Shown: piece by piece, positions 12,161-64,000 of the stretch
Position numbering within the stretch: the stretch's first letter is position 1
Layout: every line of letters begins with the position of its first letter
Source: Psammoneis japonica
Taxonomy: Eukaryota
Direction: 5' to 3'
Assembly (NCBI GenBank): GCA_008632985.1
Contig: QPGO01000021.1
Coordinates: 62,001-126,000 of the forward strand
Length of the DNA: 64,000 nt
Program-made: the position numbers and the translations under genes
Notes under the pieces: generated by a model
Told to the model about the DNA's origin: nothing
The model's input: the letters and a program-made list of their open reading frames with translations, nothing else
Databases searched by the model: none

Positions 12161-13789
12161 ATGTAAAACCATAAAGATAGCTGAAAGAATAATCTCCTGC
12201 CACACTCGTGCCTCTCGCTAGCGCAACACGAAACTTTTTGTGAGAGTGGCTAGAGAAAAAAGGCCATTGCATTGTCATTCATTCAGACTCCAGTTGAAGA
12301 AGAAAAAGGAAAGGAGAGAGTCTGGAGGGCCAGTCAGTGGAGGTCAATCCATCCAGAAGCCTGTGGAGACCTGACGTCACCACACTCTCTCTCTCTGCTT
12401 TCTGCACCTGGCATGTCACAACAATGTCACCAATGACCTCCACATCAATGAACTTGAGGGTGCCCATTCCCACACCAGTGGTCAAGGTGGATGAGACAGT
12501 GGTTTGTTGATGAGTGCAAGTTGGGTCATGGGCTGGGAGAACCGGGGGTTGGGAAGAATTGCAAATCAATGTTTTGGTTGGAAAACCAAAACACAACAAT
12601 GCAAAACAAGCCAAACACTGTCTTTGTGTGTGGCACCAAATTGTTGACAATCTTGTTGGCTGGTGTGTTGTTTTGCTTTATTCTGACTTTTGCTCTCATT
12701 CAAACACAGGCAGATCTTGTGGAAACTCAAAAAAAGGATGAGAGTTCTTCTCAAAGGCTTCTCAGTGGGTGACCTTCATTTCTGAGCACAGCAGTCAGAA
12801 AAGGCACAAAATGTGGGGCATGCATGGCAAGAAGGAGCTTTGCTTGCCATTGCACTGGTGCATGGGGAGTCAAGTGTGGCTGTGACACCAGATGCACTCA
12901 GAGAAAACTGCTCTTGACTGGAGAAAAATCAATTGGCACAACATGTGGAGCAAGTGTGACCACTCTTGTTTGCTGTGCGGCATGCCCAGGAAATTCACAC
13001 AAGCATTCAAGAAGCTTCCAAGCATGGAGCAACAGCCTCCAAGTGCAGCTCATCAAGAGCTGTTTGGGCTCACATTTTTCTTTGTGCAGCAGCAATCAGA
13101 GCACACAGGGTCACAGCAATGAAAGGCAGCAACTTGCAAGTCACACACAACACAAAAAAGATCATGGCTGTGAAAGCAGCAAGTGCCAGCTCATGACAAC
13201 AGCAGGTGGGTTTTTGCTGCAGAGCACAAAGCACATGCCAGCTGTTCTTGCTGTTGTCACTCTTGCTGCCTAAATTGCCTGTGTTTTTGACTCTGTGCAA
13301 AGGCAACAACTCAGTTTTCAAAAGTGCACACCCAACTGGCACAACACAGGTTTAGAGTGAAGAGTGCAGCCACTGTGATCTGTGAGGAGTTTGGGGGTGC
13401 ATGCAGCAGCACACCTGCTGTGCAGTTGTGTGAGAGGCATTTGCCAGCATCTGCAGCTTGCTTGGTTGCTGTTGTTGGCTTTGTTTTGTTCAGGTCTTTT
13501 CACCAGCCAGCTGATTTTGAAAATTGGGCTGCAGTTCACACACAAGCAAACTGTCAAAGAAGAGTTTTTTCAATGGTTGCTTGTGGCATCAACCAAAAAT
13601 GATGCATCAACAAAGCAGCAAAGTTGGGCCAAAAAGCACTCTGCCTTTGTGTCCAGCATTGAAAGCCCAGCTGCTGCAGCAATGTGCACAATTCTGTGCC
13701 CACACTTTTTGACAAGTCCAAGAGTGTGCCACCTGCTGCACAGGTGCAAATGACTTGAATCAAGCTGTGATTTGTGATTTCTCTTCTTC

Positions 13790-15600
13790 AGAAGGAAAGC
13801 ACACTCATGGCTGACAGCTTCCCCCATGGTCCATCAGCAGATGTGTGAAATCCTGCTTTTCCCAGCAGCTCAACAGCTGTCTTCCAACTCACCTCCTGCC
13901 ATGCACCAAATTTGCCTTTGATGCTTTGGTTGAAGCCATGCCATGGCACGGTGCTCCTGAGCAAAGGGGAGCAAGGTTGTGCTCTTTTTGTTGGTGACCA
14001 TTTCTTGGCTTTTTCCCTGAAGTGCACAGAGGCATGATGTGCCAACAGGAGGCAGCTGTAAAAACCCATCATCACTTCTTTGTTGCACACAGCACAGGTC
14101 CAATCAATTAAAACAAAAAGCTTCTTCATCTTTGTGCAGAGCACAATGCCAGCCAGATGTGCTGGTTCAAGGTGGAACATGTTTTGGTGGCAACCAAAGT
14201 CTGGCACAGCTTCAATGTTCTTCCACACACATGCTGTGCAATTTTCTTCTTGCTTGATTGAAAATGAGTCAGACAGGAGGGTGTTTGAAGCCAGGGTGCC
14301 CCTTGGTGAAATCAAGAGGGCAGGGTCATCTGTGCCACCACTTTTTGGATTTCACAAACAAGTTTCTTCTTTCCATCAAGGTGTGGGTGAACTTTGGCCA
14401 AGTGTTCAAGGTGAGGAGCACACATGCCTTGTGTTTGATGTGTCACATCTCACCAACACAGGATGCTTTGGTGCAGCAGTTGGAATCATTGCTGACATTG
14501 TGAACCACACCATGGGCCCCGGCTCCAATCATTGTGCTGACAAACCATTTTTTCCTCCTGTCAAATGACTGCAATGAAGGCCTTTTTGATGCTTGGAAGA
14601 AAGCAGGTTTCACCACCTTCACACCCAAAGTTCCAATGTTTGTCAGCTGGAGCTTTCGTCAATTCCCCACACTGCCAAGTTCAAATGTTTTGCCTCAGCA
14701 TGCTGACAATGCACCTCCTCCATCAGAAGCATTTTGGCTTTGTGTGGGTGTGGGAATGCCCAGTGCCTGATCTCAAAGTCAATTTTTCAATGGGTGTTTG
14801 TGAGATGAACAACACTTGTGTGTTTGTGTTCTCAATGAATGTCTTCTCTTCCATGTTCTTGGCAAGCTTTCTTTTCAATGCTGTCACCCATTGGAACAAG
14901 TGCCAGCAGCACTCTGAGAATGGCACACACTGTTGGTGGGACTGAGCCTCTTTCCTGATCCTTGTCATTCGGAAACATGAAAGATGCCGCCACTTCAGAC
15001 TCACCTCCTTGCCAGGACAGAACCCCACCAGCCACCTCTTTCATGCCAGCTTTGCAATCTTCTGATGTTGATTTTGAGTTGTTGCAAGTCAGTGGCTTTT
15101 GAGTTTCAGCTTTGCAAATTGACTGATTCCAAAACCCAGTGTGACTTGCCCCAAGTCCTCACTGGGATCAGTGTCACCTTTGACTTTCCTCTCAACTGCA
15201 TCAAAACACACCATCTGTTCTTTGCATGGGCTTGGAATTGTGGCTCCTTGTTCCACAAATTCCTTGACTTCTGAGGCTGCAAAAAACCTCCTTGCATTTT
15301 GTTCACCAAGTGACAAAGGTCAAGTGCTTGCTGAGATGTTTTTCTCATCTTTTCAAGATTTTCTGTCAAGTGCTTTGCTCAATCCCTTGTCAGCCACTTG
15401 ACTGCAACCAAGGACTTTTTTGAAAACCCAACTGCCAGCAGATTTTGTGGGCAGCTTCTGACAACAAGCCAAAGCAGGGTCCATTTTGACCAACACAGGT
15501 CTGGTTCTGTCATGTTGACATCAGTTGTGGTTTCTTGTTGTTTCAGGTTTGATGCCAGCATTGGTGCCATTTGCAACTTTCTTTCTTCAAATGTTGCTTT
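13790..15600 (-). pseudogene. Degenerate protein kinase-like gene
   Basis: IGAGAHGVVH (G-loop, expected GxGAYGVVY) at ~14500-14530 is followed by CCTKAS and HIKHKACVL (subdomain II/III-like), with VLIDWTCA (subdomain VII-like) further on. Interrupted by stops and frameshifts. Confidence 0.5.
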
Positions 15601-15965
15601 TCACATCAGCAGCTGTTCTCTCAAGACCCTCACATGCACAGAAAGGAGCTGATTTTTTTTTCTGACCCTGGGCTCTCTTTCCAACAATTGTCAGTGCCTT
15701 TTAAAGCAATTGGAAAGTGAGAGGAAAGGAAGTGTCTCATAGTTTGTCTGTGCAATTTGGTGAGGACAATGGGCAGAACAACACTTTGGTCATTGCTCTT
15801 TTCACATGTGTCTGGGGATTGTTTTTGCCAGGGAAGGGTGCCCAGCCAGCCATTCTCTGGCACATTTTCCTGTTTTCATTTTGTGGTTCATGCACCTTGT
15901 CATGAGCTGCTTCACACTGACAAGCATTGCAACAAAAAGTGACAGATGGCTTGTGCCATTGTTGG

Positions 15966-16173
15966 CATCCAGGTGTGGGCCATGGCGGTTGGTGTCATTG
16001 TCCATTGTCACAGTGCATCAAGATTGCTTGTGGGCAACCAAGCTGTTTCAGGGTTCTTAAATCACATCCAGGTGCGGGCCGTGGCGGCAGGTGTCATTGT
16101 CCATTGTTGCGGTGCATCAAGCACAAGGGGAAGATTGCTTGTGGGCAACCAAGCTGTTTCAGGGTTCTTAAAT
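15966..16173. repeat. Tandem duplication of ~100 bp
   Basis: CATCCAGGTG...GGGTTCTTAAAT occurs at 15966-16062 and 16065-16173. Confidence 0.9.
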
Positions 16174-17899
16174 TGCCAAGAATGATCACAAAATTGATTG
16201 CAGTTGATCACAAGTTCCCAGCACAAATGGTGATTGCAACAGGCATTTTTGCCACACATGGTCATGATTGCAATTGTTTGTGATCAGACTGCTTTCAAAG
16301 CACATGTCATTGTCATGATGGGCTCCATTTTGCTTCACCTGTGGTCTGCAGTTTGCCTGCTGTCTTGCCCGGGTGGTGCTCCTGCATGAAGAGTGGCCCT
16401 GCAAAGTGCGCCCCTGCCAGGGAGGCATCAACATGGCTGTGATTTGATTGCAGAGTTGGTGCAATCACTTGCCATTGTGATGAGGCAATTGTGCATTCAT
16501 GGTGATGCAATGTCTTGTTGTAAACTGACCATGACTCAGAACTTTGTTGTGAGTCTCATTTTCATTCACAAGTGTTCAGTCATGAGCAACAGGACAACCC
16601 CTGCTCATCACCCAACTCTGCTTTGCTCTCCATTGTGAGTGTCTGCACAACAACCATTGCACAGGCACTTTGCACACCCTGCCTTGGGGTGCATGCAAGT
16701 GTGCATGAAGAACAGTCGGTGCATGCCTCACAATGAAGAGTGGTCCATGACAGCAAATCTGGCTCCACTTCCAGAAGATGACCTCATGATGTCAAGTGGG
16801 CATTTCTGAGATCTCTCAAGTTGGGAGTGGGTGGGCACTGCTTGTGGGGACATGCATGTGGCACAGTCAATGGCGCCAGCCAGAAATTGATGAGGCAAAG
16901 CTTGCTTTTGTTGGCCCCTGACCCCCAGCCCAAGGCCAAAATGCAAGGCAGCAATTCTCAGCTGTGACAAGCTTGGAGGCTCAAGCCCGGGGTCTTGACC
17001 AAGTGCTCTTTAAGAAAACAACATGCCTGGTGATTGTCTTGCTCATGCACTGGTCCTTCCAGCAGTGGCAGCTGAAGGGGTCATGCTCTTTGTTGTTTGC
17101 AAACTCACCTCATTGACCTCTTAGGTCCAGCAGAGGCTTTTTTGCTGCCAAGCTGCTCTGGTTTCTTCAGATCATCTTGAAAATGACAACTCTGATTCTG
17201 AAGTGCATTTCCTTGGAAGACATGAGTCAAGAGACGCTTGAGGTGCTTTTCAATGGTTCCTTCTTGTTTTCCAGACTCGAGGCTCATTGATTTGGTCTCT
17301 AAATTGATTCCAGCAGAACTGGTGTGATTGATTCTTGCTCATGGAAGAATTTACAAAGGCGCGCCAGTTGAAACTTTCATTTTCCACATTTTTGGTGCCT
17401 TCTGTGGTGTGTGTGCACAATGCACTGTGCTCAAAGAACAGTTGCAAAGGAAAGCAGAATGAAGTGCAAAATGTGGAAATTGTGAGATCAAATGCTCTGT
17501 GATTTTTGGCTTCTCTGAATGAGTTCTCAATGGGCCAAAGCTTCTGCACTGCTTCTGCAGACAAAAGGCCTTTTGGAGAATGCAATTGTGAGACAACAGA
17601 TTGTCTGGACATGATTGCTGTTGACACGGAAGATGTCAACATCGTCAATTGATTGCATTTGCAATTTTTGACTTCCGATCAACTCTGTGTGATCGTTCTG
17701 TCCTTTGTGTGCATCCACGACTGTGGTGCGATTGACACACAAATGACATGTGATCACAGACATGCATGTGACAGTCGCACACTGCACCCGGTCAAATGCA
17801 CAGCGCCTGCCCCGCGACTGACCCAACCCACCCACAAGTTTGAAATGGCCATTGTCAAGCAACGCTTCTTGCCCCAAACTGACCCACTCAAGGGAAGCT

Positions 17900-19860
17900 G
17901 ATGCTTCAAGTCCATGACTGAAAAGAAGCATGACTTTCATTTGACATTTTCACAATGTGGGCTCCAGCCAAGTTGCGCCACCGACCAAGGTTTGAAATGT
18001 GTGCAAAAGCAAACAAAGCAAACTCAAGAGCACACAACGAGTCAAAACAAAAGCCCAGAATCACCATGGCAACACGAGTTCTGGTCCCCTTCTCACACAG
18101 CAACCATTGCTTTGACTGCACTCATGCTGACAATGACAGCAGTCATTTCAAAATCAAGCATGGAGCACCACTTCTGAGTGCTGCTGCCATGGCAATGGCA
18201 AAGGAAAAGACAGTCGAGGCAGCTGAAAAGTTGGGGCTGACAATGTCCAACAAGACAGATTACATTGCCAGCCCACACAGTGGCAAACACGCTCCACGAG
18301 ATTCATGGTCAGTGTGGCAAACTCCCCAGAATCATTGCGCTTGCTGCATCCATCTTCCAGCACCAGAGGGCCGAGATTCAAGGGCTGCAATGCACACTCG
18401 GGTCATCCAAAGCTTTGCTGCAAAGGAAGTCCTGTGCACTCTGAGGTGTGGAACAATTTTTGCCCGTAAAATGAGAAGGACGGGGTGAAGTGCAAGAGCC
18501 ATGGCTGCAAACAATTCTTGCCTGAGGATGCATGCCTGCTCTGAAACCACCTCCTCTCAAGCAACACAGCACAGGGCCTCCAGTTGTTCATGACAATGCT
18601 CGCTGCCACCTGCCTCTTCTTCCATCAAGATGAGTTCAGCAAGACAGAGACATCCAATTTCCTCACAACTCTGACATTTTGACGGCAATTGCCCACTTTG
18701 TCATTTGTGGATTTATCTCCATGTGAGAGTAGCACAAAGGGTGGGTGTCTGTTTCCAAGTGAAAAAGAGCTGGCCAACATGCCAGAGGACGGGGTGAGCA
18801 AAACCAAGATTGAACATTGGAAAGTGATGGATGCTCTCTAGAAAATGTTTCGCACAGTGTTGAACAAGCCCAATGTCAAGCTTGGAACACACAGCTTTTG
18901 CAAGATGGCTTGCCTTTTCTGTGCATGGGCTGACACAACAATGGCAGATGTCATGAAGAGTGCTTGCCACAAGACCTTGGCGCAAGCAGAAAAATGCCGC
19001 ATGGATGCGTTGCCGCTGAAGGACATCGGCGCTGTTCATGATGATCCTGTGGAGTGTGTCCCTTCAAAGTGGAAGTGTGTCCTGCAAGAAAGCGAAGGCA
19101 ACATTGAGTCAGATGAACGCCCCTGCAGTTCCATGCCAAAAATTGATCGGCCAACTCACCTGTGATTTCATTTTTCGAAAGTCAATGACATCTCCAAATC
19201 ATCCAGGCGCAATGGACACATTGCTTTTTTGGTTGATCAAGCAATGAAGTGGTGCAGGGCTGGAGACTCCAATGCCATGCTGGAAGATGTTCTCTTGACA
19301 CTGCCAATCAAACAAGCCTCTCAAGTGCGGCAAGCCTGGAAAATGAAACTGCTCAATGAAATTGCAAGTGTGAGCGAGTGCATTGTTGCACCTGCAGCTG
19401 CCAGTGTGCTCACTGGTGACAGCTTGCTTGTCAAATCAAAGTCATTGAACAAAAAAAGAGAGGATCTGATGGCAATGACCTTGAAGACCGCCACAAGCTG
19501 AAGAAGAGCAAAATGGAGATGGCAGAAAAGCTGGACATTGTTGTCAAGATTTGGGAGCAGCACCATGAGCAAGGCCAGCCATCAGTGACAGAGGGAGCCC
19601 AAAAATTCATCCAGCAGCAGGCTCCACCAATTGTTGGTTGCTTCCAAAACCACTGTAACTCTGACGCGGAACGGTTCTGCCACAAGTGGAAAACACTCCA
19701 ACACACCAAGTTCCCTTGCAAGGGAAAGGCCAATGAACCCTGTGCCGGATCGTCTGGGGATTGGGAAACTGCACATGCAGTGAGCACGACAGGTGATAAA
19801 TGTGAAGTGCTTTGCATGCACAATTTGTCGTGCACATTACTTGCTTCTCTTTTGCCGATG
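17900..19860 (+). mobile_element. Tyrosine-recombinase transposon remnant (Crypton-like)
   Basis: ORF 18845-19165 reads GTHSFCKMACLF...VMKSACHKTLAQAEKCR. This reverts by single CG>TG or TA>TG changes to GTHSFRKTAYLF...SARHKT...EKYR, the HxxR, H and catalytic Y motifs of tyrosine recombinases. No RT is visible nearby. Boundaries are approximate. Confidence 0.65.
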
Positions 19861-22214: not shown

Positions 22215-23916
22215 GATTGTTTTGATGCGTGCTTTGAATGATGTTTTGGTTGTATATTGGAAATTCGAAATTCTCAGACGTGCACCTTCAATCTTGCTTC
22301 AATCAATCATCACGCAGAGATTTGAATCGACTGGTTGGACCAAAAATTCAAACGAAGAACAGAGTTCTGATCTTTTTTTCCGACGTCACGTGCTTCTCCT
22401 TCTGCCTTTTGTTGCAACGATCAGAAGTGGAACAATCACGATGACTTCAGCCTTCAGCTGGTCATCAAGCACAACTGCACAAGCAGGTGAACTCAAGACC
22501 AAAAGATCAGCTGCAGACTGCAGAGCACTCTTCAAAAAGAACGGAGAATCAGCAAGAGAGAGAATTGAAAATGAGTCGAGCATCAGCTTCTCTTCTGCTG
22601 CAATCATGTTGCTGCTTCTTGCTCATTCTACCCAATGGACATGTGTTTGTGCCGAGAACCAGTCGAAATTGCAGTTTCTCTCCAGCTGCATCACCAACTG
22701 TGTCAGCGATGATTCACAGTGTTCAGCGCTCTTTTACAATCCATTGGAGTTTGAATCGGCAGAAGCCAAGGAGGCACACATGGAATTGGCACAAGAACCC
22801 CAAAAGTCTCACTGTGTCAATGAACCTGGAATTGGACCCATGCAGCATGGTGTGTTGTCCAGTTTACCTCTGTGGATGGAAGATTGTGTGAGTTGTTCGA
22901 AATGCCAGACTTGCAAAGTTGGTTGTCAAATCTTTGTTAAGACTTGTCGGTCGTCACTGTGTTTTGGTCATTTTCAACTTTATTTTCCTGACAGCATTTT
23001 GTTTGACCCACCAAAACACAATGCAGATGGAACTTCCTGGACTGCAGCATGTCATGGAGGTTGAAGATCCCCAACTGGTGAATCTGGCATTGAAGATTGT
23101 GGCTGGGCCTCGCCCTTGGCACCGTGGGCACATCAACAGAAAAGACAGTGATTGTGATGAAAATTTAGAGACCACAGATTCGCCATTGGAATGCCAACAC
23201 AAACATCAGATCATCCACTGGACAAAGAAAGCGGATCTTTGGAGATTGGAGTTCAAGCACTGGGACGCTTCAGCGTGGTTGAAGGCTTGTCAGCATTGGC
23301 AGGGCTGGGCAAGCAGCCATGGATGCTGGGGAAGTGCTGGCACTGTTGGTGCTGAGCCTGACATCACAAGAGATGGGTGACAGGTTTGACAGATGCTGCA
23401 GATCCTTTCCATTGCCAGCACATTTTGCCTGTGTTGTCTGCATGGTGGAGAGAACAAGGGGGGTTCTTTCTCAGGCATCAAAGCACTCATCACCACCAGC
23501 GTGGGGTTGGATGATGCTGCCCATGAGCTCCAAGTCAGCATTTGTGGTTGGGCCATGTGGGGGTTGGTGCAGGTGGCAGGCAGGATGATGAAAGTCATTC
23601 AATCGCAGCAGAGTGTGTGCCAGGAGTGTGGCAGACTCACAAGTCCTGCAAGGTTTGTCAGAGATTTTCTTGCAGCTTGGGAACACAAGCCCATGGGAGA
23701 TGCAGCAGGCAGCCTGAAACTCCAAGTGAGTGGAGCTCTCCTGTTGGCAGCTTTTGAAACCCATCGTCGATGGCACATTTTCTTGTGCAGGGGAAGTCCT
23801 GGTGTGCAACAGTTTGGTGCTGGGGGGTGTCTGCAGTCTGGCCCAAGTCAAGACTTCCTTCTGCATTTGAGTGTGCTGTGAGTGCACAAAGCTGCCAGTC
23901 AAGTGTGCTCTGCATC

Positions 23917-24161
23917 TGACAGAAAATGAAGATGACTGGGTGGAAGAAAACAATGGCTCCTTGCTGCTGTCTAAACAGCAGATGAGTCTCCGTGCAGAGA
24001 CCGTCACAGGAGCCAAAAGACTGGTGTCGTGACATCGGCACTGCTGTCATCATTCTTGTGAGCCATGTGGCTCAAAAGCAAACTACATCGCATGACGCAC
24101 GTGGAACTAAGAGCACACACAATCATGTGTGACAAACTAAAATCTTGTTCAAATCCTGTCA
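23917..24161 (-). repeat. 3' LTR of copia element
   Basis: Gapless match to 30892-31136; adjacent to the PPT. Confidence 0.95.
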
Positions 24162-24268
24162 CTCCCCAGTTTGCTTGAGGGGTCAACAGCGATGGATTCG
24201 AAGTCGGATTGGTTGAAAGCCTTGGGGTCGAAGTTCCAAAACATTAGAGGACAAAGGAGGTTCCAGAC

Positions 24269-53859: not shown

Positions 53860-54110
53860 TCATCGTGGGACCCCACAAATACGGAGGGACCCGCAACCCG
53901 GAAATGTGTAGAGTTCTACGTGAATGTATGGGGACTGTTCACGTAGGTTTTGTACCAGAGCTATCTCGTGAACTAGGCGTTTTTTCGGATTTTTGTCGTA
54001 GAAACTGTACCAATTTTGCGTATGTAGGCTACATGTTTCAGTACCACATACAAAAATTCGCGTAGTGCTCTACAGGAGGGTCCCTCCGTATTTGTGGGGT
54101 CTCACGATGA
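53860..54110. mobile_element. 251-bp MITE with 33-bp near-perfect TIRs and 4-bp TSD CAGT
   Basis: TCATCGTG(G/A)GACCCCACAAATACGGAGGGACCC at both ends with one mismatch; CAGT at 53856-53859 and 54111-54114. Confidence 0.9.
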
Positions 54111-54496
54111 CAGTGGTTGGTGATTGCAGACTTTTTCGTGTCGGTCCGGCAGTCGGGGGGTCGGGCAGTGGGGCAGTCGGGCAGTCGGGTTGTCCGTCTG
54201 AATTTGAAAGTGTGTCCCTCGGATTTTAGAACGGGATGGGTTGTTTGGCACAGATGAATTCTTCGGATTCGCAGAATTGTCATTGAGGACCACTCCCCCG
54301 GATCGCAACACATTTTAACTGGCACACAGAAAATTTCTACGTGATTTCTACGCACCTCGCACAAATCACGTGCCTCTGGTACAAAACGTGTGCCCTCCAC
54401 CCCAATCCCGCAAAGGGACACCCACCGAGAGGTTCGCTTCGTGCACTTTTGAACTTCATTTAGCGCCACGCCCACTCACCACCAATCCAAAACAAC

Positions 54497-57400
54497 ATGG
54501 GTCCATCTCTTTCAACAGGAAAGTTGATTGACAGAAGAGACAAGAAAGGTCTCTTTCAGAGCTTTTGCTCTCTTGACACTGTTGTGAATTGCGGTGATTC
54601 GGGAAACTCGGTGCGAGTCGACACCGCAGGATTGAACTCAAAAGGAGGTCCAAAAGACAACAAAACAAACAAAGAGCTAAGACTGGTCTTAGATTGTCAT
54701 GACAAAACTGTGGAAAGGCTCTTTGGCTTTGGTGCGAATGATGGTTTCGCTGTCAAGAAACGACGACCCAAGAGAGCGAAGCAGACAGAGCGCGCCAAAC
54801 CCGAAGCACTGTTGCTGAGGAAGCGCCATCGCAGCAAGAAAGTCCTGCATCCAATCAAGGTAGCCAATGTGGCCATGCAACACCATTTGATGTGGGTGGG
54901 AATGCGAAGCAAATGAGACGTCTGCTGGCAGAAGAGATGTTCGCAAAGAAAGGGGGTGACGTCGTTTGGCTTGTCGGGATGGCCGACCATTGCTCTCCGT
55001 CAGATTTTGGTTTGCCAGAAACCGGAGATCATGCATTTTGGAGAGGGAACCAGAAGCACACTGCAATGCAATGCACTGTGGTGGCAAACATTGTCAGGCC
55101 AACGCTGTTAGACAAAGACGCGAGCAAGGACGATTTCGTAAAGAAATTCAGGACGCGGGGCGACGCACTTACCTTGTTGGTTACAAATGCCAAGACTTCA
55201 AAACGGCATCACTTGGAAGTGCACTTCTGCCATGCATTTGTGGGTGCATGCAAGTTGTGGGACATGCAGGGAGCCGCAAGTCGGGATTGCCAGCACTTGC
55301 TCCTGCGGCACGCTGAAGAGGGCTCCTTTGTGGGAACGAAAAGGGCAAACATGAGACGGGCAACTGCGTTGGCACAAATTCTGCCGCTCGTGCCACAGGT
55401 GGAGAAAGAGACACGGGGCGACTCGCACGAAATGGCAAAGCTTGCTTGGGCCGCCCAAGACACGAAGCAACGCTTTTCGCCCACCGACATCCCCAAATTG
55501 GCTTTGGAAGGCGAAAGCCCCACGATCCAACCCGATGACGTGCCTGTGTTCGTCGAAGACGAAATCAAAAGCAAAGGCATCGCATGGTGTAAGAAGCTTG
55601 ACAACGAGATGGAAAAAAGAATCACGAATGTGTTCAAGAACGGCTGGGATGACATGGAAGAACCGCCAATTTCCATGAACGAAATGGTCCAAGAGCTTGA
55701 GGAGAATTGCCCTTTGCTGTGGGCATTCACCAGCATTGAGAACGCACCGAACGCCATGTGTCGAGCCAAATGTAAGGAGATGAAGTGCACTCGCCGGCTC
55801 CTCACCTGCTTGTTGACATTGCGCACCAGGAACCCTCACAATCTTCAACACCTTGCCCTTGTGGTGTGACTCGGAGCCATGACTCGTGGAAATGGAGCAG
55901 ACGCAATGGGGTGGCACATTGGACTGATGGTTGACAAGTCAAAAGCCCGGAAATGGATGAAAGAGAATTGTGAGAAGCTCCGCAGCTTGCAGCGTGATGC
56001 CCTTGGCAAGGATGCTCACAATGGCTTGATCTTTGACAATTTTCAATTCTTCCAAACTCCTCTGTTCCAGCGAGGCAGGCGGTCCTCGATTCCTGTTCAT
56101 GCTGCAATGACAGCACACGTGAGATGGAGATTGCCCCAATGGAAAGCAGGTGACACTGTGGCGTACCTCAGTCTTGGAGCGAATCAAGGCACACACCGTT
56201 TCGACGTCGTTGCAAGCTCTCCGGTGACTGATGACTGCTGTCAAATTGCGTGCGCATTGAAGGCTCAGGTAGATTGCGAAGTGCCTCTTTCAAATTCAAG
56301 TGAAAAGACACAGGCAAAAGCAGGTGAGACCATGTCACTTGCGCTCCCAGTCGACGGATGGGAGCTGCACACATCGCCAACGCTCATGACGCACCCACCT
56401 CTTGCCCGTGATGGCAATCAAGAAACTCCCAAGATGCCGGGAATGGATTTGTCCAGCAGTGATTGCTGCGATCACGTAAAGGCATTGAACCAGTGCTTGT
56501 TTCTCAGACAAAACCTCGTCCAAGAACGAATCGCACGAGGAAGCCGCAACAGGGCAATGACCGAAGTGCAAAGTCTGACCGTTGACTGGTGGCGGTCGCT
56601 GATTGATCGCGTGGGAACCGAATTGGAAACGGAGCATGGCAGACTTGTGAGCACATGGAATCCACACGCAAAGAAGAAGTCCTTGTGGGTTTGGACTGAG
56701 CTGTCTCACCATGCGGAAACCAAGGCGGAAGGATTGAAAGATTGCATGCGTGAGATCTTTCTAGAGATGAAAGTGTTGGAAGAAAACAGCGAAGGCAAGT
56801 TGACAAAGACAGCGCGTCTGCCTTACCTCAAGACACACACGCACAGCAACTGGAAGACAATTGAAGGTGTTCACAAGCATGTCGCAGATTTGTACGAGCA
56901 CGCGATGCTGGACGGTGATTCTGAAAGTGACGAAGAGGCGCTTCTCGCAGCCTGTGACACTTTGACGCCGATCCACGGAGATCTTCACGTCGGATTTCAC
57001 ATGCTCGACGCGATCTACCACCTGGCGCATGAAAGCAGCTTAAATCCCATAAAGCAGATGCTTGGAATGAAACGAATCACAGCTGAGCCAATGAAGTCTG
57101 GCATCTTCGCCGCGACAGAGCTTCTCAAGATTTGCCATGGCCCGCTAAAATTGCTGTTCCTTGAACGTTTTATTGACGAACAAGGTGGGGCGGCTCTTGA
57201 CTCAGCAACAATGACAGCAGGTGACTCAGAACAGGCTCTCAATTTCGGGACACAATTTCAGTGTTTCCTTGATCTACAGTGCCTCTGTGACACAGACGCG
57301 GTGTTGCAGTTCCACGCTCTTCTGGTCAAAGCCACTGACCTTCTCTTTCTGCACGAAGCAAGTGTCAAGGAATCAGATGCAGTGACGCCACACAAACTGC

Positions 57401-58194
57401 TGATCGAGTTGATGCCTCTTTTCCAAACATCAGGGAAGGCAAAATGCGTCAATCTCTGTTTCTCTTGGATGGAGGTGGCAGCGGCAATGACCCCGGCAGA
57501 ATTGCTGGAGGAGTTTGTTGATCACACTGTCAAAATGAACGCAGACAAGAATGACATTGCGATGGATGACCTGTGTGAGAAGGGTGGTTGGTTTTTGAAA
57601 AGAGGGGACAAGCTGCCAACCGAACAAGATCCACTTGCTGTCAGGTCTTTCTTCTTGGGTCTTGTGCAGAAGAGTCTTGCAACATGCAGAGAACTGGCAG
57701 GGGGGGAGAAGCAAACCAAGCGAACAAAAGCTTCAGAACGCAACGAGCTCTTTGGCGCAGTGCATGAAATGTGCCGGGCCGCAGAGGTGGTGCACGACAA
57801 CGGTCGAATGAGCCTCGACATCACACCATTTGCAGAAGCCCACAAAATGGAGGCGCAAGACTTTCAAGATAAAAAGTCGCGCAAACAATCACTGATCCCC
57901 CCAAATGCAGCCACAATCGAAAACCTTCACATCATCGTGAACGAGGTGGAGTCCGACTCCGACTCGGACTGTTCGAAAACAGACAGCACTTCAAGCGAGG
58001 GCAGCACACAACAAGATGAAACAGCTTGTGAGCAGTTGTCACGGGCAAGCTCAAGCGAGAGTGGCTGGGGAGAAACGACTTGCTCTGGTCAACAGACCGA
58101 TGAAGATGGGCTGTCCGTAATGGTTGATGACGGTGAGTTCATGTTTTTGTCACATGAAGCCGGTTCTGTCCCCATTGAGGACTCAACCGACTGA
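54497..58194 (+). pseudogene. Academ/DUF6589-like transposase
   Basis: Motifs LIFDNFQF, HGDLHVGFHMLDAIY and NDIAMDDLCEK fit the D...(G.FH)...D..E layout as I recall it. ORFs 54892-55869 and 55879-58194 are in one frame, split by a TGA. Confidence 0.6.
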
Positions 58195-58242
58195 GACAAT
58201 GATGAATCCGTCACACTGGGTGACCGCAAACCAGCAACAAAG

Positions 58243-60365
58243 GTGCCAGTGCCAATTCCAGCCATCCCAACAACAATGGCCCATGGCAACTGGTTCACAC
58301 TGGGCAACAAGAGCATTGTCAGGAAGACAGAATCCCGAGAGACCAAAACCACTAAAATGGCCAGGAAAAAAGAGCGAGCAGCCCAAGCACTCTGTCACTT
58401 TGAAGGTTCCAATGCGACCTTGCCAGAGATCATTGAAATGGTCGAAATGGGATCCCTCCCTTGTCGAAAGGAGAGATGGAGCGACATTGCAAAGGGAGAC
58501 AGCTCAAGTCCGCCCAGAAAGCATCGGCGTCAAATCAGCGGGACTGGTGATGGCCCCACGACAACTGTGATCGAAGCAGAGAATGATTTGATTGGCAAAA
58601 TGAACAAAGAAGAGATCGATTCAATTCATGAACTGCACACGCACCAGACCGAGGCCATGCGCCGACTTGGATTTGAAAAGGAAAATCTGCTTCTAGTTCA
58701 GCCAACTGGAACAGGCAAGACACGGGCATTTGAGGCGACTGCAACACTGTTGGATGGAGTGAGCATTTTCATGTCACCCTTGGTGGCCACAAGCGCAAGC
58801 CACGCATCTGGAATCAACGAGAATGTGGAGATGAAGTGTTTGACCGCGGCCGTGTGCGATGCAGCCACCGAGGAACAAGAATCAAGACTCATGGCAGGTG
58901 TCTCTGCAATGCCAGCGGACAGTGATGCCGCCTTGGCTCTGACAATGTCACCAGCTGAGTTTGCGAGCAAGAAGTGGCAGGCATTCCTGTTGGTGGAAAT
59001 TCGGCGTGGCATCATCCGACTGTTGGGAGTCGACGAAATCCATCTCACAGCACTTGATTTCACATGTCGAGAGGAGTTCTTGAAGTTAAAGGCACCTCTC
59101 AAAATGACACAGGAAACAACCAATGCGCCGATCGTGGCCATGACTGCCACACTTGATGCCGAGCTGAAATCAAAGTTTGAAACAGTGACAGGAATGACAT
59201 TTGATTCCTGCATTTGGGACACGAACATCGGCAAAGTCAGACTCATTCGACATGCACGAAACAGGACTGCCAACATCATCAAAACAAAGCTGAAGTCGTG
59301 CCTTGCCGATGAGGGGCGAAATGCCATCGTGCGCTGCCTCGAGCGATGCCGCTGCGAACACACGCTACTTGCGACGGTCGAATCCTTGCTGCTGTCAATG
59401 GAAATCGATCAATGTGCTGTAGAGGCCTTCCATGGGAAGAGATCAACGAAGATGAAACTGTGCCCAATCCATCTCTTCAAAAACAACCCTGGCCTCCGAG
59501 TTCTTGTGTGCACAAAAGCGGGCAACGCTGGGATCGACTCGAAGCATTGTGGCGATGTCATCATGGATGGACCGCCATCCAACATTTGCGACTTCGTTCA
59601 AATGCTTGGAAGAACCGGAAGGCTTGGTTCGGTTGATTTTGGTGAACGGGGACCAGAGTGCCATGTGTTGTTAAGCGTGTCTCTGCTTGAAAAGGTTCTG
59701 AAACAAATTGAAAGGGAGGAAGATCGTGAGCAGCGAAGAACAGCGCGACGGCGCTTCTTCGAGTTGATGGAAATCTTGTCATTCTCAACCGTCTGCATCA
59801 ATGATCAGTTTCAAAGACGATTCGCTCACCCGACAATGCGCAACAAGCTCCTCATGCAGGGATCATGTCACCGGTGCCGTCACGTCCAGATGAAGACCAA
59901 ACGAGCCGTCCACGTCCAGTCACTCCCAACCACGACTTTCAAGATAGAGCTGCCAACTGCGACAAATGCTGGGCATGCTGCAAGGACAAACATGCAGGGG
60001 AGAATGAAATGTGGTTTGGCAAGACGGCCCTTACAATGACACTAGCGGGTGCCTTTGATGGCAAGCGAGCTTCTTTGAATGAAGTGCTTGCTCTCCTGAA
60101 AGAGAATGCCGAGACAATGTGGCCACGAGCGCACAACACCAGGTCATCCGGAACACAAGATGCTGAACTTTTGCTGCTTCAGCTGATTGTTTCTAAAGTT
60201 CTTCGACACCGCTGCCGACTAGATGCCTCCACAAAGAACACAGGAGCGCAAAGACAGAAGATTGAGATGTCGTGGAACACTGACAAAAGAGGAATGCCAA
60301 TGTGCCGGTTGGATGCCTCGTGGGACAAGTTCCAAAATGTGCTTGCTGAAAGTGGAGTAAATTAG
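58243..60365 (+). pseudogene. RecQ-like SF2 helicase of the transposon
   Basis: QPTGTGKT (I), SPLVA (Ia), VDEIH (II), MTATL (III), AFHG, CTKAGNAGID (V), QMLGRTGR (VI) and a C-terminal CDKCWAC after a frameshift; same frame as the upstream transposase. Confidence 0.88.
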
Positions 60366-60532
60366 GCCAAATGACCGACAACTCTCCGGAATCACAAAGC
60401 AAAAATGAGTTCTGCACAATTCAATGCCTCGTGGGACAAGTTCCAAAGTGTGCTCACTGAAAGTAGAGTAAATTAGCCCAACAAACCGACGACTCTCCAG
60501 AATCACGAAACAAAAATGAGTTCTGCACAATT
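60313..60532. repeat. Tandem duplication of ~110 bp covering the helicase stop codon
   Basis: ATGCCTCGTGGGACAAGTTCCAAA...GAGTTCTGCACAATT occurs twice. Confidence 0.88.
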
Positions 60533-61417
60533 GTGCCGTCAAAAGCGGTCTCCCATGTTCCAAGTCGGCAACACAGCACACAACAGAACAATCTCCACAA
60601 ACACCACTGCTTGCATCATCAACACATTCCACAAAGTAAATCATGAGGCCCTTTCGTGGGGAAGAATCTGCATGCGGACCGAGAAACAAACAGAAAAAGT
60701 GCCGGACCGCTGTCGTCGGTTGGAAACACACCAACCACGAGCCGCGACCTCCAGAGCTCGCCTCAAACACCCCAAAGGTGCCCCACACATCAGGTGAAAC
60801 GAATGAGGCACAGGCAAAGGGATGAGAGGAGGGAAACAACAACAAACTCGACGAAACATGCCGGAACGACGACAACAGCGGCAGACTCATGCACCGAAGG
60901 AATCGAAATCGACATTCTTGCGCGGAGTGGCACTTGTCAAAATTCAGCCAACATGCAATGGTGCCACAGACAAATGTCGACAACATCCTGAGTGACTCAC
61001 CTCGTGAAAACATGTGACAACGACGGTGGACGCGAAACAAATTCGCCATGGTGGCCATGCAAATTCTGCGTAGAATTTTTCGTTTTTGTGCCAGGAACCA
61101 AAAAAATCGCACGTTGCGATTTTTTTGAGCTGTGCCAGTTAGCCTGGCACAGTGACATGTTGCGATCCGTGGGAGGTCTTCTCTGTCTTCTTGCGTGCCA
61201 CTTGCAGACCTCCCAGTTGGGAGTGATTGAGGACATGAGAGGTTGTGGGGACATCCTAAAAAATCGACAAATTCCCTGCGACAGGTGCGTGGAACGGTTT
61301 TTCGGGAGAGCTCGAAAGTTCTGAAAAATTGGGATTGCCGGCATGGCATGTTCAAAAATGCACTCAGTTACACACAAAGACAATTTGTTGTGAATTCTAC
61401 ACGAAAAAGTCACACTG

Positions 61418-64000
61418 GGGAAAACATGTTGAACAATGAGTGAGTTTGTGCGATGCGCCATTGTGGCGATAAATTGGAAAAAAAAGAGTGTCCGTGCACC
61501 TCGCTGCAGCCCCAAAAATGGCATGAGACATCAAATGTGATGGTCATCCGCATCACCGGTGCGGTGGCCATGCCACTCAGCAGCCACAATGCCGGCCCCG
61601 ACGGCAGGGCCCTGCGCACGTACAGGCAACACAGCATGCAACGGCACACACCCACACCCACAAAGAAAGACAAGTGGTCAATGCTCCCCGCAGGCCTGGT
61701 TTTCTGTCCGTCCATCCAACTGGTGTGCTTTTGGCGCCACAATTTTGATGTTGTTGCCCGTCACCGCGTTCACCATTGGGAAGAAAACAGAAAATGGAAA
61801 CCGGTGCTTTTGCGATGTCGGGGGCACTCGTCACATGTGTGCTGCAGCCGAAACAACATGATGGCGCGGAGCCTGTGTCTTGTTGCCCTGGACTCACCCT
61901 CATCCAGCGGCACTCATTCTGGTGGTGTCAACATGTTGTTTGTGGGTTTGGTGCGATGCAAGTTGGTTTCGTTTGCGGTTGTTTCTGAGTCCAGTTCCCC
62001 AAGTGTCCATTCGAGAACACAAATGGTGAGTTCAGGCATGCAGCAAATCAGTCTTGTGATGCTCTGCACACTGGCAACAGGTGACAACGTCCAAGCTCTG
62101 TTGCTCCAATGCCAACCTGTCAAACGCAGCCCAAAGATGCCAAGGATGAAGAGTCTGATGACACAAGCTGTCCTCAGGCACAGCAAAAAAGCACTGCAAT
62201 TCATGTTGCCATGCCATTTTCATCACCTGTGTTTTTTGACACAAATCTGGCTCTGGTGTCTGGAAAAGGAGCCAGCCAACAGTGTTCTCTCTCCTGCATT
62301 GCCAGCGACAAAAATTTGAGGTTGGGTGTTGTTGGCGACATTCAAAAGCTGCCCATTGCAACTTGCCACCTTGGAATGATGCCAAGACGAGTCGTCTGTT
62401 GTCCTGCAGGACAATTGTTTGCCATCAGGTGTCTGGAGAGCAGAGTGTGGGATGGAGGGGCCATGGATGCGGGGGCAACTTTGGCAATTGCGCTCGATTC
62501 CTTGACAACACTTCTTTTGAGGACATTCATTGGTGAGACTTTTTGCAATGGAATGAGGACGCATGATGACTTGACACTTCCATTGCCCTTGATCTAACTT
62601 CAATCACCCTCACAGTGCAGGGTTGACTTGGGTCCTCATGAGTCAACAGTTTCCATGGCAAAGGCGAGCCTCACAGAATTGAGCACTTCCAAAATGCCAG
62701 GCATGATGCGACCAGCTCCACAGGCTCCAGCCGTTTCTCTTGGTCAGCATGGCATGAAGACCAACCTGCAAACAGATGGATCCTGGTGTGCTCACATTCC
62801 AATGACCAAGGCATTGTTGGCGGCACTGGGCCATGCGCCAAGGCAAACTTTTGGTGCATGGTGGTGTGCATTCTGTGTCAGCTTCACCAAGGAATGGCTC
62901 TTGCATCTGTCAATTCCAAGACACAGATTTGCCAATTTGTGGATGACGGCACAGGCACTCCAAAAATGAAGATTGTGGGGATTGGTTGTCATGATGCACT
63001 TGACTGTTGAGTCACATGGTTCCTCCTTTGAAACTCCTTCCATCACAGCAACCAGATCATGCCTCAAGGACAGACTCCATCTTTGTCCAATTGTGAGGTG
63101 CTGGGCATCAATCAATGTCCTGCTGGCCCCAAGTCCTTGGTTGAGGGTGACAGAAGAAAGAACCCACTGCCTGAACATGGAGGCCAACAGTCTCAATTGG
63201 AAGTCAGACACTGTTTGGAGCCATGGATGGGAGCTTGGGTGCAATTCTTGGACCAGACAGATGGACAGCTGTCTTTTTTGCAGCTTTGGAAAGAGCCATG
63301 GAATGGATCACTCTTGCTGCTGGAGACTTTCATTGTTTTGAATTCCAAATGTTTTGAGCAGAAAAGCACATTTGTCCCAGCCATGGGTTGTTGATGGAGA
63401 TCTCATTGAATCTTTTTGGAATTTTGAAAAGGCTGCAATGGAGGCACTGGTTCAAGAAATGAATCAAAAGTGGGAAAGTGAGGAAAACTTTGCCCCTTCT
63501 GGCAATGCAAGAGGTGGCAGAGTTTTGATTGATCTGGGAAACACAATGTCTGATGGAGAGGATGAGAACACTCCAGCCAGTGGTGCCGCATGCTGACTGC
63601 AGATGACGTGTTGGTGATGGCAGACGACAAGACAATGCTCCTCTAGAGTGGGCACCGATGAGCAATGGCAGTCAAAGTCCAAGCATTTGCTGGTCAAAGC
63701 AGCAGTGATGCACCCTTCTGATTTGGCTGAGCTTTGGTGCAAAGCTTCCAATGATGTTCTTGTGCATCTCTTCCTTCTTTGCCCAGTGCTTTTGGTTTGA
63801 GTTGGCATCCAAACATTCCCTTTGTTCACACTTGGCTGCAACTGCTGGTGTGCGCCGTCACTGCATCAGAGGCATTGGCACTGCAATGACGTGTGGAATT
63901 GTGTGACAAAGTTTTTGTGACACATTTGCAATGTGTCACTGCAATGTTGGAAAGTCAGTTTGCAGCCAGAGGTCTGTCCATCAAATGTCATGTGCAATTT
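61418..64000. other. TpA-depleted degenerate repeat sequence running to the window end, unassigned
   Basis: Almost no TA; CG loss increases towards the end; no confident domain. Confidence 0.6.

Follow-up and report, generated by a model that had tools for sequence, protein, structure and literature searches.

Islands of integrated transposon DNA in a diatom-like genome appear to have undergone TpA-specific hypermutation

The window analysed here, a stretch of 64 kb, contains four TA-poor islands with host genes of normal TA content between them. The island boundaries were drawn from TA positions, and together the islands make up 31,056 bp, almost half of the window. They consist of transposons and further non-genic sequence of a nuclear genome, which the host genes of the window assign to a diatom or a close relative. 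The features, given with observed/expected (o/e) dinucleotide ratios where these characterise them, are as follows.

12252..19655, no strand assigned: island 1, TA- and CG-stripped DNA without a recognisable protein domain (TA 0.04, CG 0.15, TG 1.77, CA 1.88)
22300..33249, no strand assigned: island 2, older stripped sequence with a Copia element inserted into it (TA 0.09, CG 0.52)
22300-23908 and 31142-33249: older stripped flanks of the Copia element (TA 0.06 and 0.04, CG 0.29 and 0.27)
23914..31136, minus strand: Copia LTR retrotransposon with RVT_2, an LTR pair and a target duplication (TA 0.11, CG 0.64)
23914-24161 and 30889-31136: Copia LTRs, 248 bp each, 90% identical
23909-23913 and 31137-31141: Copia target duplication GCATC, 5 bp, intact
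24600..27062, minus strand: Copia Pol remnant (RT/RNase H part), open over 821 aa, RVT_2 with E 1.7e-19
48098..50316, no strand assigned: foldback element with inverted arms 48098-49020 and 49542-50316 (repeats I1-I4)
48098-48399: spared outer 300 bp of the foldback left arm (TA 1.05); the rest of the element is stripped
48400..51200, no strand assigned: island 3, the stripped foldback part and about 900 bp rightward of it (TA 0.09, CG 0.47)
54100..64000, no strand assigned: island 4, TA-stripped over its whole length and extending past the window end (TA 0.09, CG 0.69)
54742..60036, plus strand: single DNA-transposon-like frame that encodes a DUF6589-type domain and, after it, a DEAD/Helicase_C helicase (TA 0.10, CG 0.80)

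Pooled over the islands, TA occurs 145 times in 31,056 bp, compared with 1,282 times in the remaining 32,944 bp (o/e 0.08 versus 0.57), and both TG (1.67 versus 1.16) and CA (1.68 versus 1.19) are enriched. The TA ratio per 1-kb window is 0.01-0.19 within islands and 0.35-1.1 over host genes, and the island edges are sharp at 100-bp resolution. The longest stretch without TA measures 1,593 bp, for which the host TA frequency gives a P of about 1e-27. Four TA-poor, TG/CA-rich islands with normal TA between them had been described in the initial annotation, with boundaries about 100-200 bp from those re-read here, and the sharp edges uphold the confinement to mobile-element islands that it proposed. 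Among the transposon classes named there, Copia, foldback and Academ-like (DUF6589 with a DEAD helicase) were recovered. The tyrosine recombinase was not: the 101 island ORFs scanned against Pfam, out of 141 of at least 90 aa, gave no match at E<=0.01 in island 1, island 3 or the Copia flanks. Island 2 begins directly at the 5′ end of the frame of a host gene, and the sparing of promoters is thus not a general rule.

CpG is likewise depleted in the islands (o/e 0.49 versus 0.99 in the remainder; 0.15, 0.52, 0.47 and 0.69 in islands 1 to 4), a feature absent from the initial annotation. Measured against host dinucleotide ratios, the islands have lost 1,918 TA+CG and gained 1,921 TG+CA; CpG decay thus accounts for about half of the excess of TG and CA. 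Decay of CpG through 5-methylcytosine is known for diatom transposons, and we read the CpG loss in these domains as this ordinary decay of methylated elements. It agrees with the change of CpG to TpG/CpA over the whole range of island CG values (0.15-0.69) and with Arg>Cys/His at 12 of the 31 conserved Arg of the Copia Pol. However, 5-methylcytosine decay is unable to remove TA, and the two losses are decoupled in the DUF6589 frame, where TA stands at 0.10 yet CG at 0.80. Within island 4, CpG is near intact as far as about 62 kb, whereas erosion has set in past that point (62001-64000: TA 0.02, CG 0.21), so the island holds at least two elements of different ages.

The Copia element belongs to a family that is highly repeated in the genome, with a summed contig depth of 8,600-114,000 over 23340-31343. 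Its Pol remnant has 708 homologues, and columns with at least 80% identity across 40 of them were taken as conserved. At these columns only 1 of 21 Tyr is kept (11 Cys, 4 His, 3 Phe, 1 Trp and 1 Arg replace the others), as compared with 19 of 31 Arg (10 Cys, 2 His) and 298 of the 331 remaining conserved residues; the overall Tyr content is 0.5% versus 3.7-5.0% in the homologues. The remnant is dead by missense, with YVDD changed to HVDD and ALYGLR to ALCGLR. The DUF6589-helicase frame is broken by just two TGA codons (55867-55869 and 58192-58194). Its relatives carry DUF6589, and one of them, P0247, combines DUF6589 with a helicase. The frame again holds 0.5% Tyr versus 1.2-3.5% in the relatives, and of 19 Tyr positions three are kept, while five have become Cys and four His.

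Two unrelated elements have Cys or His where their homologues conserve Tyr, and this comparison shows that the change runs TA>TG/CA, with A:T>G:C at one or the other of the two base pairs of the step, as the initial annotation had stated. The enrichment of A>G in TpA context could be checked at the codon level: at position 2 of conserved Copia Pol codons, A>G occurred at 11 of 21 TpA but at 2 of 97 CpA/ApA/GpA (Fisher P 2e-8), and at position 1, T>C occurred at 4 of the 21 sites followed by A, compared with 0 of 51 followed by another base. Within this alignment, A>G is thus shown to be specific to TpA. The two Copia LTRs differ at 26 positions. Of these, 23 are YpR-to-YpR sites, including 8 CA/TG doublets whose ancestor may be either TA or CG, and 3 lie elsewhere; in host tandem repeats used as controls the corresponding fractions are 14/46, 4/13, 13/52 and 7/19. 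Since the LTRs diverged almost solely at YpR sites, their comparison shows a chromosomal mutation that took place after insertion, in line with the earlier claim. The outer foldback arms differ at 24 positions, and at 17 of these the left arm has TA where the right has TG/CA. Elements of both classes, I and II, are affected, and so is non-coding DNA.

The base flanking the TA step matters strongly: ATA/TAT steps are nearly eradicated and TAA/TTA survive best. Relative to host DNA, which need not equal the ancestral sequence of the elements, TA survival falls from CTAA (0.45) through TTAA (0.35), GTAA (0.21), CTAG (0.19), CTAC (0.13), ATAA (0.08), GTAC (0.08), ATAG (0.014) and ATAT (0.011) to ATAC (0.006). 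In the Copia element, 20 of 21 Tyr-TA sites are lost versus 12 of 28 CGN-Arg, from which TpA loss is estimated to be roughly five times as fast as CpG decay.

Environmental (metagenomic) relatives of the Copia element have a TA o/e of 0.49-1.00 in 80 of 80 cases. Many of them are CpG-decayed (CG o/e down to 0.10), and those with CG o/e of 0.10-0.25 retain TA of at least 0.49. By this comparison TA-poverty is not native to the Copia family. The absence of the signature from all 80 suggests that their carriers do not share it as a rule, the two search patterns used (Tyr in one, Arg in both) being biased against mutated copies. In the public sequencing run X1, depth is 61-75 up to position 16669 and 64.2 over host genes; the region 12001-16669 therefore stands at about single-copy depth. 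With this, and with one foldback arm spared, the earlier term 'repeat-targeted' is not supported.

Taken together, we propose with a probability of about 0.8 that a local, dinucleotide-specific process has mutated integrated islands, and that it is enzymatic, aimed at chromatin and likely an adenine deamination. After integration of mobile DNA, this process would turn TpA into TpG or CpA. It would be directed to chromatin in a silent or methylated state and would not depend on sequence homology, as is suggested by the nearly single-copy region 12001-16669 being the most mutated and by the spared inverted-repeat arm. The most likely chemistry would be conversion of adenine to hypoxanthine in 5′-TA context, copied as G at replication. 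A role in genome defence and a DNA adenosine deaminase, both suggested in the initial annotation, remain putative. The 5-methylcytosine decay would run alongside as a second process, slower than the first, and mark the same chromatin. TpA>TpG/CpA creates no stop codons and raises GC; elements are inactivated by missense, which strikes every Tyr codon as well as Ile-ATA, Leu-TTA and others. AT-rich signals are erased, and long frames stay open but dead.

Since TA is its own complement, an adenine target and a thymine target are indistinguishable from sequence alone. A TET/JBP-type dioxygenase that oxidises the T of TpA in silent chromatin to 5-hydroxymethyl- or 5-formyluracil, which pairs with G at replication, would give T>C on one strand and thereby A>G on the other, an identical pattern. 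Oxidised thymines do mispair with G, and the 5-hydroxymethyluracil of dinoflagellate DNA lies preferentially at TpA and TpC. Nevertheless, we consider this route, the main rival, unlikely. Neither a TET/JBP nor a deaminase domain was found in the 47 host ORFs (14 + 33) scanned out of 86 listed at 100 aa or more, and the earlier statement that the window holds no candidate enzyme stands for these ORFs. For the same signature in Bigelowiella natans, adenine deamination is preferred in the text of a recent preprint (10.64898/2026.01.13.699255).

A passive origin is distinctly improbable. Here, silent chromatin would lack a repair pathway, and lesions arising spontaneously at TpA, such as a TA photoproduct of UV light or an adenine that has deaminated by itself, would pile up. 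The CpG decay of the same islands fits silent, poorly repaired DNA, and the organism is probably photosynthetic. However, TA loss outpaces methyl-CpG decay about fivefold in the Copia element and is near saturation, the dinucleotide balance has no dipyrimidine UV signature standing out, and the relatives in other carriers all keep their TA, many of them despite strong CpG decay. Moreover, the process in B. natans is described as active in just 11 of 15 lines (10.64898/2026.01.13.699255).

It is very improbable that TpA in silent DNA carries a modified base which sequencing or assembly misread as C or G. Modified bases do cause systematic miscalls, no sequencing platform is recorded for either the assembly or run X1, and the assembly may itself have been built from the X1 data. 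Strand-specific misreading predicts two half-depth versions, one all-CA and one all-TG. Instead, a single X1 contig (4,936 nt), in which TG and CA are interleaved, covers the island 1 region 12001-16049 with 4 differences at a depth of 60.9, close to the host-gene value, and this reproduction at full single-copy depth argues against an artefact. The two Copia LTRs offer identical context, yet have different outcomes. In the same run data, other copies hold TA at homologous sites: among 25 listed differences from 18568-19446, they have TA at 7 and CG at 8 where the window has TG/CA, and the reverse case for TA does not occur.

Two further readings have next to no probability. That the elements themselves evolved avoidance of TA (UpA) and CG, for instance against a nuclease or RNA sensor, as selection against UpA and CpG is described for RNA viruses (PMC3829696), is already contradicted by the ruined catalytic residues (HVDD; 20 of 21 conserved Tyr gone), the LTR divergence after insertion, the effect on both strands and non-coding DNA, and the normal TA of relatives. 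ADAR-like A-to-I editing of element RNA, fixed by reverse transcription, would suit the 5′ U preference of ADARs (10.64898/2026.01.13.699255) and the 11:4 ratio of Tyr>Cys (coding-strand A>G) to Tyr>His in Copia, but the bias does not reach significance (P 0.12; 16:8 when pooled, P 0.15), sites derived from TA or CG differ between the two LTRs, both strands are mutated, and for DNA elements the reading is already contradicted by the DNA transposon, the foldback element and the nearly single-copy region 12001-16669, which are stripped just as much. Reverse-transcription errors and RNA editing had been set aside on similar grounds in the initial annotation, rightly as it now appears.

Among known systems, RIP of ascomycete fungi likewise riddles integrated transposons with dinucleotide-specific transitions and leaves skewed islands beside normal genes. 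However, RIP runs CpA>TpA (C>T), makes stops and lowers GC, whereas the process described here runs TpA>CpA/TpG (A>G), makes no stops and raises GC. RIP also requires duplication and a sexual cycle, whereas here a nearly single-copy region was mutated and one repeat arm spared. APOBEC3 (C>U on cDNA) and ADAR (A>I on dsRNA) share the principle of disabling mobile elements by base-editing hypermutation, and ADAR also the 5′ U/T preference. In contrast to these enzymes, which edit one strand of replication intermediates before integration, the process described here mutates either strand of the copy that already sits in the chromosome, and its targets include DNA transposons and non-coding DNA.

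The initial annotation knew of no description of such a system. One exists in the preprint of Mettrop et al. 2026, whose text reports that giant-virus and virophage DNA integrated in B. natans is hypermutated from TpA to TpG/CpA (10.64898/2026.01.13.699255). Two viral inserts gained 231 mutations in mutation-accumulation lines, of which 230 were A>G or T>C, all of these on TpA; genome-wide, TpA-poor, CpA+TpG-rich clusters were enriched in reverse-transcriptase and DDE domains, and adenine deamination was proposed (10.64898/2026.01.13.699255). As far as the preprint's main text describes it, that system shares with ours the dinucleotide rule, the confinement to foreign or mobile DNA in local blocks with normal genes alongside, and the involvement of single-copy DNA. 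The hosts differ, a chlorarachniophyte there and a diatom-like stramenopile here, as does the end state (TA o/e 0.45 in the NCLDV region there versus 0.02-0.13 here). Here, the targets that stand out most clearly can be identified as Copia, foldback and DUF6589-helicase transposons, and the rate, directly measured there, is inferred here. We further see spatial coupling to CpG decay and a strong flanking-base effect; 'CpG', 'trinucleotide' and 'flanking' do not occur in the main text of the preprint, the supplementary tables of which may hold flanking contexts. Our search found no published report of TA-erasing hypermutation in diatoms. The signature has been reported once before, in an unrelated alga, and the present case is therefore a second lineage with this signature, near saturation and on transposons.

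The TA-stripped DNA forms four islands, whose limits (12252-19655, 22300-33249, 48400-51200 and 54100-64000, islands 1-4) were read off the individual TA positions. At each edge the TA density shifts within about 100 bp, so that the islands are sharp-edged at 100-bp resolution, and the adjoining genes have normal TA. In 1-kb windows, the observed/expected ratio (o/e) of TA is 0.01-0.19 in the islands and 0.35-1.1 in the remaining, host DNA. Pooled, 145 TA steps were counted in the islands (31,056 bp) against 1,282 in the remainder (32,944 bp), the o/e values being 0.08 vs 0.57 for TA, 1.67 vs 1.16 for TG and 1.68 vs 1.19 for CA. The longest TA-free run comprises 1,593 bp (P ~1e-27 at the host TA frequency), and the GC content of the islands (0.47-0.53) is not lowered. 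A parallel depletion of CpG, which is absent from the record of the initial annotation, accompanies the loss of TA: CG o/e is 0.49 in the islands and 0.99 outside (0.15, 0.52, 0.47 and 0.69 in islands 1-4, respectively). With the host dinucleotide ratios as expectation, the islands lack about 934 TA sites (145 observed vs 1,079 expected), and the joint deficit of TA and CG (1,918) matches the joint surplus of TG and CA (1,921), no other dinucleotide class showing a shift of comparable size between islands and host DNA. Thus, TA and CG steps have both been drained to TG/CA, in approximately equal numbers.

The elements that could be identified within the islands are the following:

23914-31136 (-), Copia LTR retrotransposon (RVT_2 with E 1.7e-19, LTRs, target site duplication)
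23914-24161 and 30889-31136, the two Copia LTRs of 248 bp, direct repeats (TGACAG...CTGTCA) ending TG..CA
48098-49020 and 49542-50316, inverted arms of the foldback element of island 3
54742-60036 (+), DUF6589-helicase reading frame of island 4, with only two breaks, both TGA

The element at 23914-31136 shows the features of Ty1/Copia elements, namely RVT_2, direct TG..CA LTRs and a 5-bp target duplication (GCATC), which is intact; no integrase was found by Pfam in 27281-28429. Its CG o/e of 0.64 compares with 0.27-0.29 in its flanks, and the element is inserted within older stripped sequence in island 2. The C-terminal part of the frame in island 4 is a DEAD/Helicase_C helicase, and relatives of its middle part bear DUF6589, in one case DUF6589 plus helicase. 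DUF6589 may be the Academ transposase. The designation Academ-like fits island 4 in its domain order, a DUF6589-type domain (assigned via relatives) followed by DEAD/Helicase_C, but the element ends, with the TIRs and target site duplication that serve as criteria of the superfamily, were not found. At 62001-64000 the CpG o/e drops abruptly from about 0.8 to 0.21 with TA still near zero, which suggests a junction of a young and an old element within island 4. Of the 141 ORFs of at least 90 aa in the islands, 101 were scanned with Pfam (E<=0.01), ORFs overlapping previously scanned frames being left out; there were just three sub-threshold chance hits, and islands 1 and 3 and the flanks of Copia gave no domain. 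A tyrosine recombinase, which the initial annotation named and which would mark a Crypton/DIRS element, was likewise not recovered among these 101 of 141 ORFs, in which heavy missense mutation could mask one.

The direction of the change can be read from the Pol remnant of the Copia element, an open frame of 821 aa with 708 homologues at E<=1e-10, the best of which, mostly from metagenomes, share 46-62% identity. We aligned 40 of 120 listed homologues (the top 30 and ten from further down) and regarded columns as conserved where at least 80% of these 40 agree. Tyr makes up 3.7-5.0% of the homologues and 0.5% of the query, which in turn contains 5.2% Cys and 6.1% His. Only one of 21 conserved Tyr residues is kept, its codon standing in the context CTAC, and the others are replaced by Cys (11), His (4), Phe (3), Trp (1) and Arg (1). 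Of 31 conserved Arg residues 19 persist (Cys 10, His 2), as do 298 of the 331 other conserved residues. The RT motif YVDD is altered to HVDD, and ALYGLR to ALCGLR. At codon position 2, A has become G at 11 of 21 TpA sites vs 2 of the 97 sites within codons for His, Gln, Asn, Lys, Asp and Glu (P 2e-8). At codon position 1, T preceding A has become C in 4 of 21 cases, and T of codons for Phe, Ser, Cys and Trp in 0 of 51 (P 0.006). A>G is thus enriched at TpA over other contexts, so that the third refuting condition named in the initial annotation, a lack of such enrichment, does not apply. A bias of Tyr>Cys over Tyr>His, i.e. between strands, was tested for and is not significant.

The DUF6589 frame, which belongs to an element without an RNA stage, points the same way in a test weaker than that of Copia. 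Tyr amounts to 0.5% here vs 1.2-3.5% in 15 relatives, and at 19 Tyr positions of the four closest relatives (35-42% identity) three are kept, five read Cys and four His; of 21 Phe positions, 16 are retained. A search for longer relatives of the helicase part (58195-60036) returned none, so that for DNA transposons the test of direction is confined to the DUF6589 part.

Decay of 5-methylcytosine explains the share of the signal that derives from CpG (CG o/e 0.49; Arg to Cys or His at 12 of 31 positions). It affects CpG only, however, and leaves the loss of about 934 TA sites unexplained. The two losses also differ in extent. Of the 21 conserved Tyr-TA sites in Copia Pol 20 are lost, vs 12 of 28 presumed CGN Arg codons, from which we infer that, per site, TA disappears about five times as fast as CpG in this DNA, and in 54742-60036 TA o/e is 0.10 and CG o/e 0.80. 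Such unequal losses imply differing clocks, and the loss of TA and the loss of CpG are probably separate processes marking one domain. Since A>G and T>C cannot create stop codons, the elements die by missense mutation with their frames remaining open; the two TGA stops in the 5.3-kb frame would stem from CGA decay.

Relatives of the Copia element allow the same distinction. All 80 metagenomic loci encoding relatives of the Copia Pol (48-64% identity) have a TA o/e of 0.49-1.00, though among them mutated copies are under-sampled because the search patterns contained Tyr (in one of two) and Arg (in both); the copy in the window still matches the first. The Copia family is therefore not TA-poor by nature. 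The CG o/e of these loci ranges from 0.10 to 1.19, and the CpG-decayed relatives with normal TA indicate that ordinary CpG decay does not entail loss of TA. Many of the relatives are strongly CpG-decayed, with values of 0.10-0.25, together with a surplus of TG/CA and normal TA, in loci L049, L060, L051, L005, L004, L007 and L033. Judged from these sequences, CpG methylation of this Copia clade seems to be widespread in nature, unlike TA stripping.

The survival of TA depends strongly on the flanking bases. Expressed as remaining TA steps per kb relative to host DNA, with strand-symmetric classes pooled, it is highest in CTAA (0.45), TTAA (0.35), GTAA (0.21), CTAG (0.19) and CTAC (0.13) and lowest in ATAA and GTAC (0.08 each), ATAG (0.014), ATAT (0.011) and ATAC (0.006). 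Accordingly, TA preceded by A or followed by T is almost wiped out, and TAA/TTA steps survive best. Arithmetic on these values shows that log survival is approximately additive across both sides. At the few polarised sites of the foldback arms, outcomes are mixed as to the role of the base 3' of the edited A vs the base two positions 5'.

The time of mutation follows from the two Copia LTRs, which differ at 26 of 248 positions, 25 of these being transitions. At 23 of the 26 differences the LTRs carry YpR steps (TA, CG, TG or CA) of differing kind, including eight CA/TG doublets, five cases of CG vs TG/CA and two of TA vs TG/CA; three differences lie elsewhere. A CA/TG doublet implies that one ancestral TA or CG was altered independently in each LTR, at opposite base pairs. 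In tandem repeats of host genes, used as four controls, YpR sites account for 14 of 46, 4 of 13, 13 of 52 and 7 of 19 differences, with no predominance of transitions. As LTRs are identical at insertion and now differ mostly at YpR steps, unlike the host repeats, the changes are chromosomal and took place after integration. RNA editing by an ADAR-like enzyme would act on an RNA strand, prior to integration and on retroelements only. The 23 YpR differences between the LTRs, the occurrence of both TG and CA outcomes and the presence of a DNA transposon and a foldback element among the targets are at odds with this, and, contrary to ADAR and APOBEC, which act before integration, it is the integrated copy that was mutated here.

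A control is available within the foldback element itself: TA o/e is 1.05 in the left outer arm (48098-48247, extending to 48399), whereas the inverted partner at 50167-50316 is stripped. Seventeen of the 24 differences between the outer arms read TA on the left and CA (12) or TG (5) on the right, none involving CG. With the left arm spared and its partner and the remainder stripped, the border of the mutated domain lies within the element, and the preserved part is turned towards the 5' side of a host gene on the minus strand (46297-48038). Fungal RIP depends on RID/DIM-2 in a fungus, is triggered by duplication and converts C to T at CpA/CpN with a surplus of TpA and AT enrichment; the islands show the reverse, with TA at 0.08, CA/TG at 1.68/1.67 and GC unlowered, in a diatom-like host and with one inverted-repeat arm spared.

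Two sequencing runs were compared with the window. One of them (X1), public and available as contigs, may derive from the same sample as the assembly. The most stripped stretch is 12001-16669 (TA o/e 0.03 and CG 0.04 over 12252-16049). A single X1 contig of 4,936 nt spans 12001-16049 with four differences at a word depth of 60.9, the host genes at 20119-23942 showing 64.2. It is the only X1 contig over 12001-16049 at a likeness of at least 85%, a limit below which older copies could lie. Depth over 12001-16669 is 61-75 vs 64 for host genes. Repeats as the target, as in the initial proposal, are not borne out by this nearly single-copy depth of 12001-16669, though copies of less than 85% likeness may exist, nor by the spared repeat arm of the foldback element. 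The Copia element, on the other hand, reaches a summed X1 depth of 8,600-114,000. One of the four differences over 12001-16049, at 15741, is TG in the X1 contig vs TA in the window, where seven TA steps are left in 12252-16049; this single case could point to mutation that continued from one data set to the other.

Over a 20-kb stretch, 14,675 X1 contigs match at a likeness of at least 85% and differ from the window at 960 transition and 126 transversion places. Among the 40 difference rows listed out of 1,126, 25 lie in 18568-19446. In these 25, the other copy has TA at seven and CG at eight places where the window has TG/CA; the window has CG vs CA at one and TA vs TG/CA at none, the others being nine. 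Less-mutated, TA-bearing paralogues are therefore present in the same genome. At 18285-19768 such a less-mutated paralogue was seen in X1 and also, at a depth of 172, in the second run (X2). Elsewhere X2 covers exon-like stretches only and may, as a guess, be a transcriptome; given this coverage, the paralogue may be transcribed.

A modified T or A at TpA that is misread in sequencing would make the TG/CA of the islands false. We consider this very improbable, since misreading would yield two half-depth versions, all-CA and all-TG, whereas X1 shows one version with CA and TG interleaved at full single-copy depth, since the two LTRs differ in outcome in like contexts, and since TA is present in other copies of the same data.

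TA ratios, Tyr loss, LTRs and foldback arms together uphold the initial annotation in that TpA>TpG/CpA hypermutation acts on the chromosome, after insertion and within mobile-element domains, and we assign a probability of about 0.8 to this process being real and as described. The view that no such system had been described was overtaken by a preprint reporting the signature in Bigelowiella natans (10.64898/2026.01.13.699255), the sole other description of TpA-directed hypermutation found in a full-text search. According to the main text of this preprint, 231 of 302 nuclear mutations in mutation-accumulation lines fell into giant-virus and virophage regions, and 230 of these 231 were A>G or T>C, all on TpA. 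Rates were around 6e-7 per site per generation, the de novo rate in the inserts being about 1000 times that of the genome, and 11 of 15 lines showed the active process. The NCLDV region is single copy, and the genome contains 124 TpA-poor, CpA+TpG-rich clusters and 324 TpA-poor CDS, enriched in reverse-transcriptase and DDE domains. As in B. natans, TpA is converted here to TpG or CpA (15 of 21 conserved Tyr to Cys or His, 17 foldback differences), in local blocks of mobile or foreign DNA beside normal genes. The words CpG, diatom, trinucleotide and flanking do not occur in the main text of Mettrop et al. (10.64898/2026.01.13.699255). To that text our study adds the saturation, the flank preference, the slower co-located CpG decay, domain edges cutting through an element and inactivation by missense mutation alone.

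The host DNA is of diatom type. A PPWD1-like protein (39204-41087) has 227 relatives at E<=1e-20; among the 120 listed matches, all those with an organism name are diatoms (Seminavis, Thalassiosira, Cylindrotheca, Nitzschia, Pseudo-nitzschia, Cyclotella, Skeletonema and Bacillariaceae bins) at 46-51% identity, and the best, without an organism name, reach 57-58%. None is near-identical, so that the source is neither B. natans nor a diatom contained in the database searched. For a QSOX-like protein, Bacillariophyta predominate in the two nearest atlas clusters. No report of the TpA>TpG/CpA signature in diatoms was found in our literature search, in which subscription journals were thinly covered. 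The window is hence a second, distant lineage of a very recently described hypermutation.

For annotation this is of practical importance. The islands contain 67 TAA, 41 TAG and 736 TGA triplets vs 266, 276 and 592 outside, and with TAA and TAG nearly absent, long and mostly spurious ORFs crowd all six frames. Five overlapping ORFs, each longer than 150 aa, occupy 28433-30178. The ORF at 60222-61367 (-), with a protein atlas recognition of 746 and a best score of 0.81, is probably spurious. Gene callers would over-predict in such DNA, and since genuine transposon proteins are deprived of every Tyr, both gene calling and domain searches are misled. Two host regions are also unusual. An open frame of 947 aa at 724-3564 (-), made of diverged tandem repeats with units of 111 to 243 bp, contains 0.4% Tyr, has no Pfam family and shows the lowest TA o/e among host regions (0.35-0.46). 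At 44646-45340 (+), an M17 aminopeptidase catalytic domain is divided between two overlapping frames by an intron or a frameshift.

Mettrop et al. (main text; 10.64898/2026.01.13.699255) suggest that an ADAT2-like enzyme deaminates adenine in DNA. In our case, the hypermutation would serve in defence and be brought about by an enzyme; to adenine deamination by a dedicated enzyme we give somewhat less than even odds. A second, distant host with a saturated TpA signature turns the search into a comparative problem, in which candidates are genes common to both hosts and absent from algae whose transposons retain TA. If the enzyme is a deaminase of chromosomal DNA, it would represent a naturally occurring editor of adenine in DNA, with a bearing on genome defence and base-editing technology. 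It is a speculative and rather doubtful extension that diatoms and chlorarachniophytes share an old enzymatic defence directed, in silent chromatin, at adenine in TpA of chromosomal double-stranded DNA. Should this hold, the defence would amount to a natural DNA adenine base editor able to inactivate transposons and integrated viruses with neither breaks nor stop codons, and the strong preference for ATA/TAT over TAA/TTA would be the enzyme's own signature.
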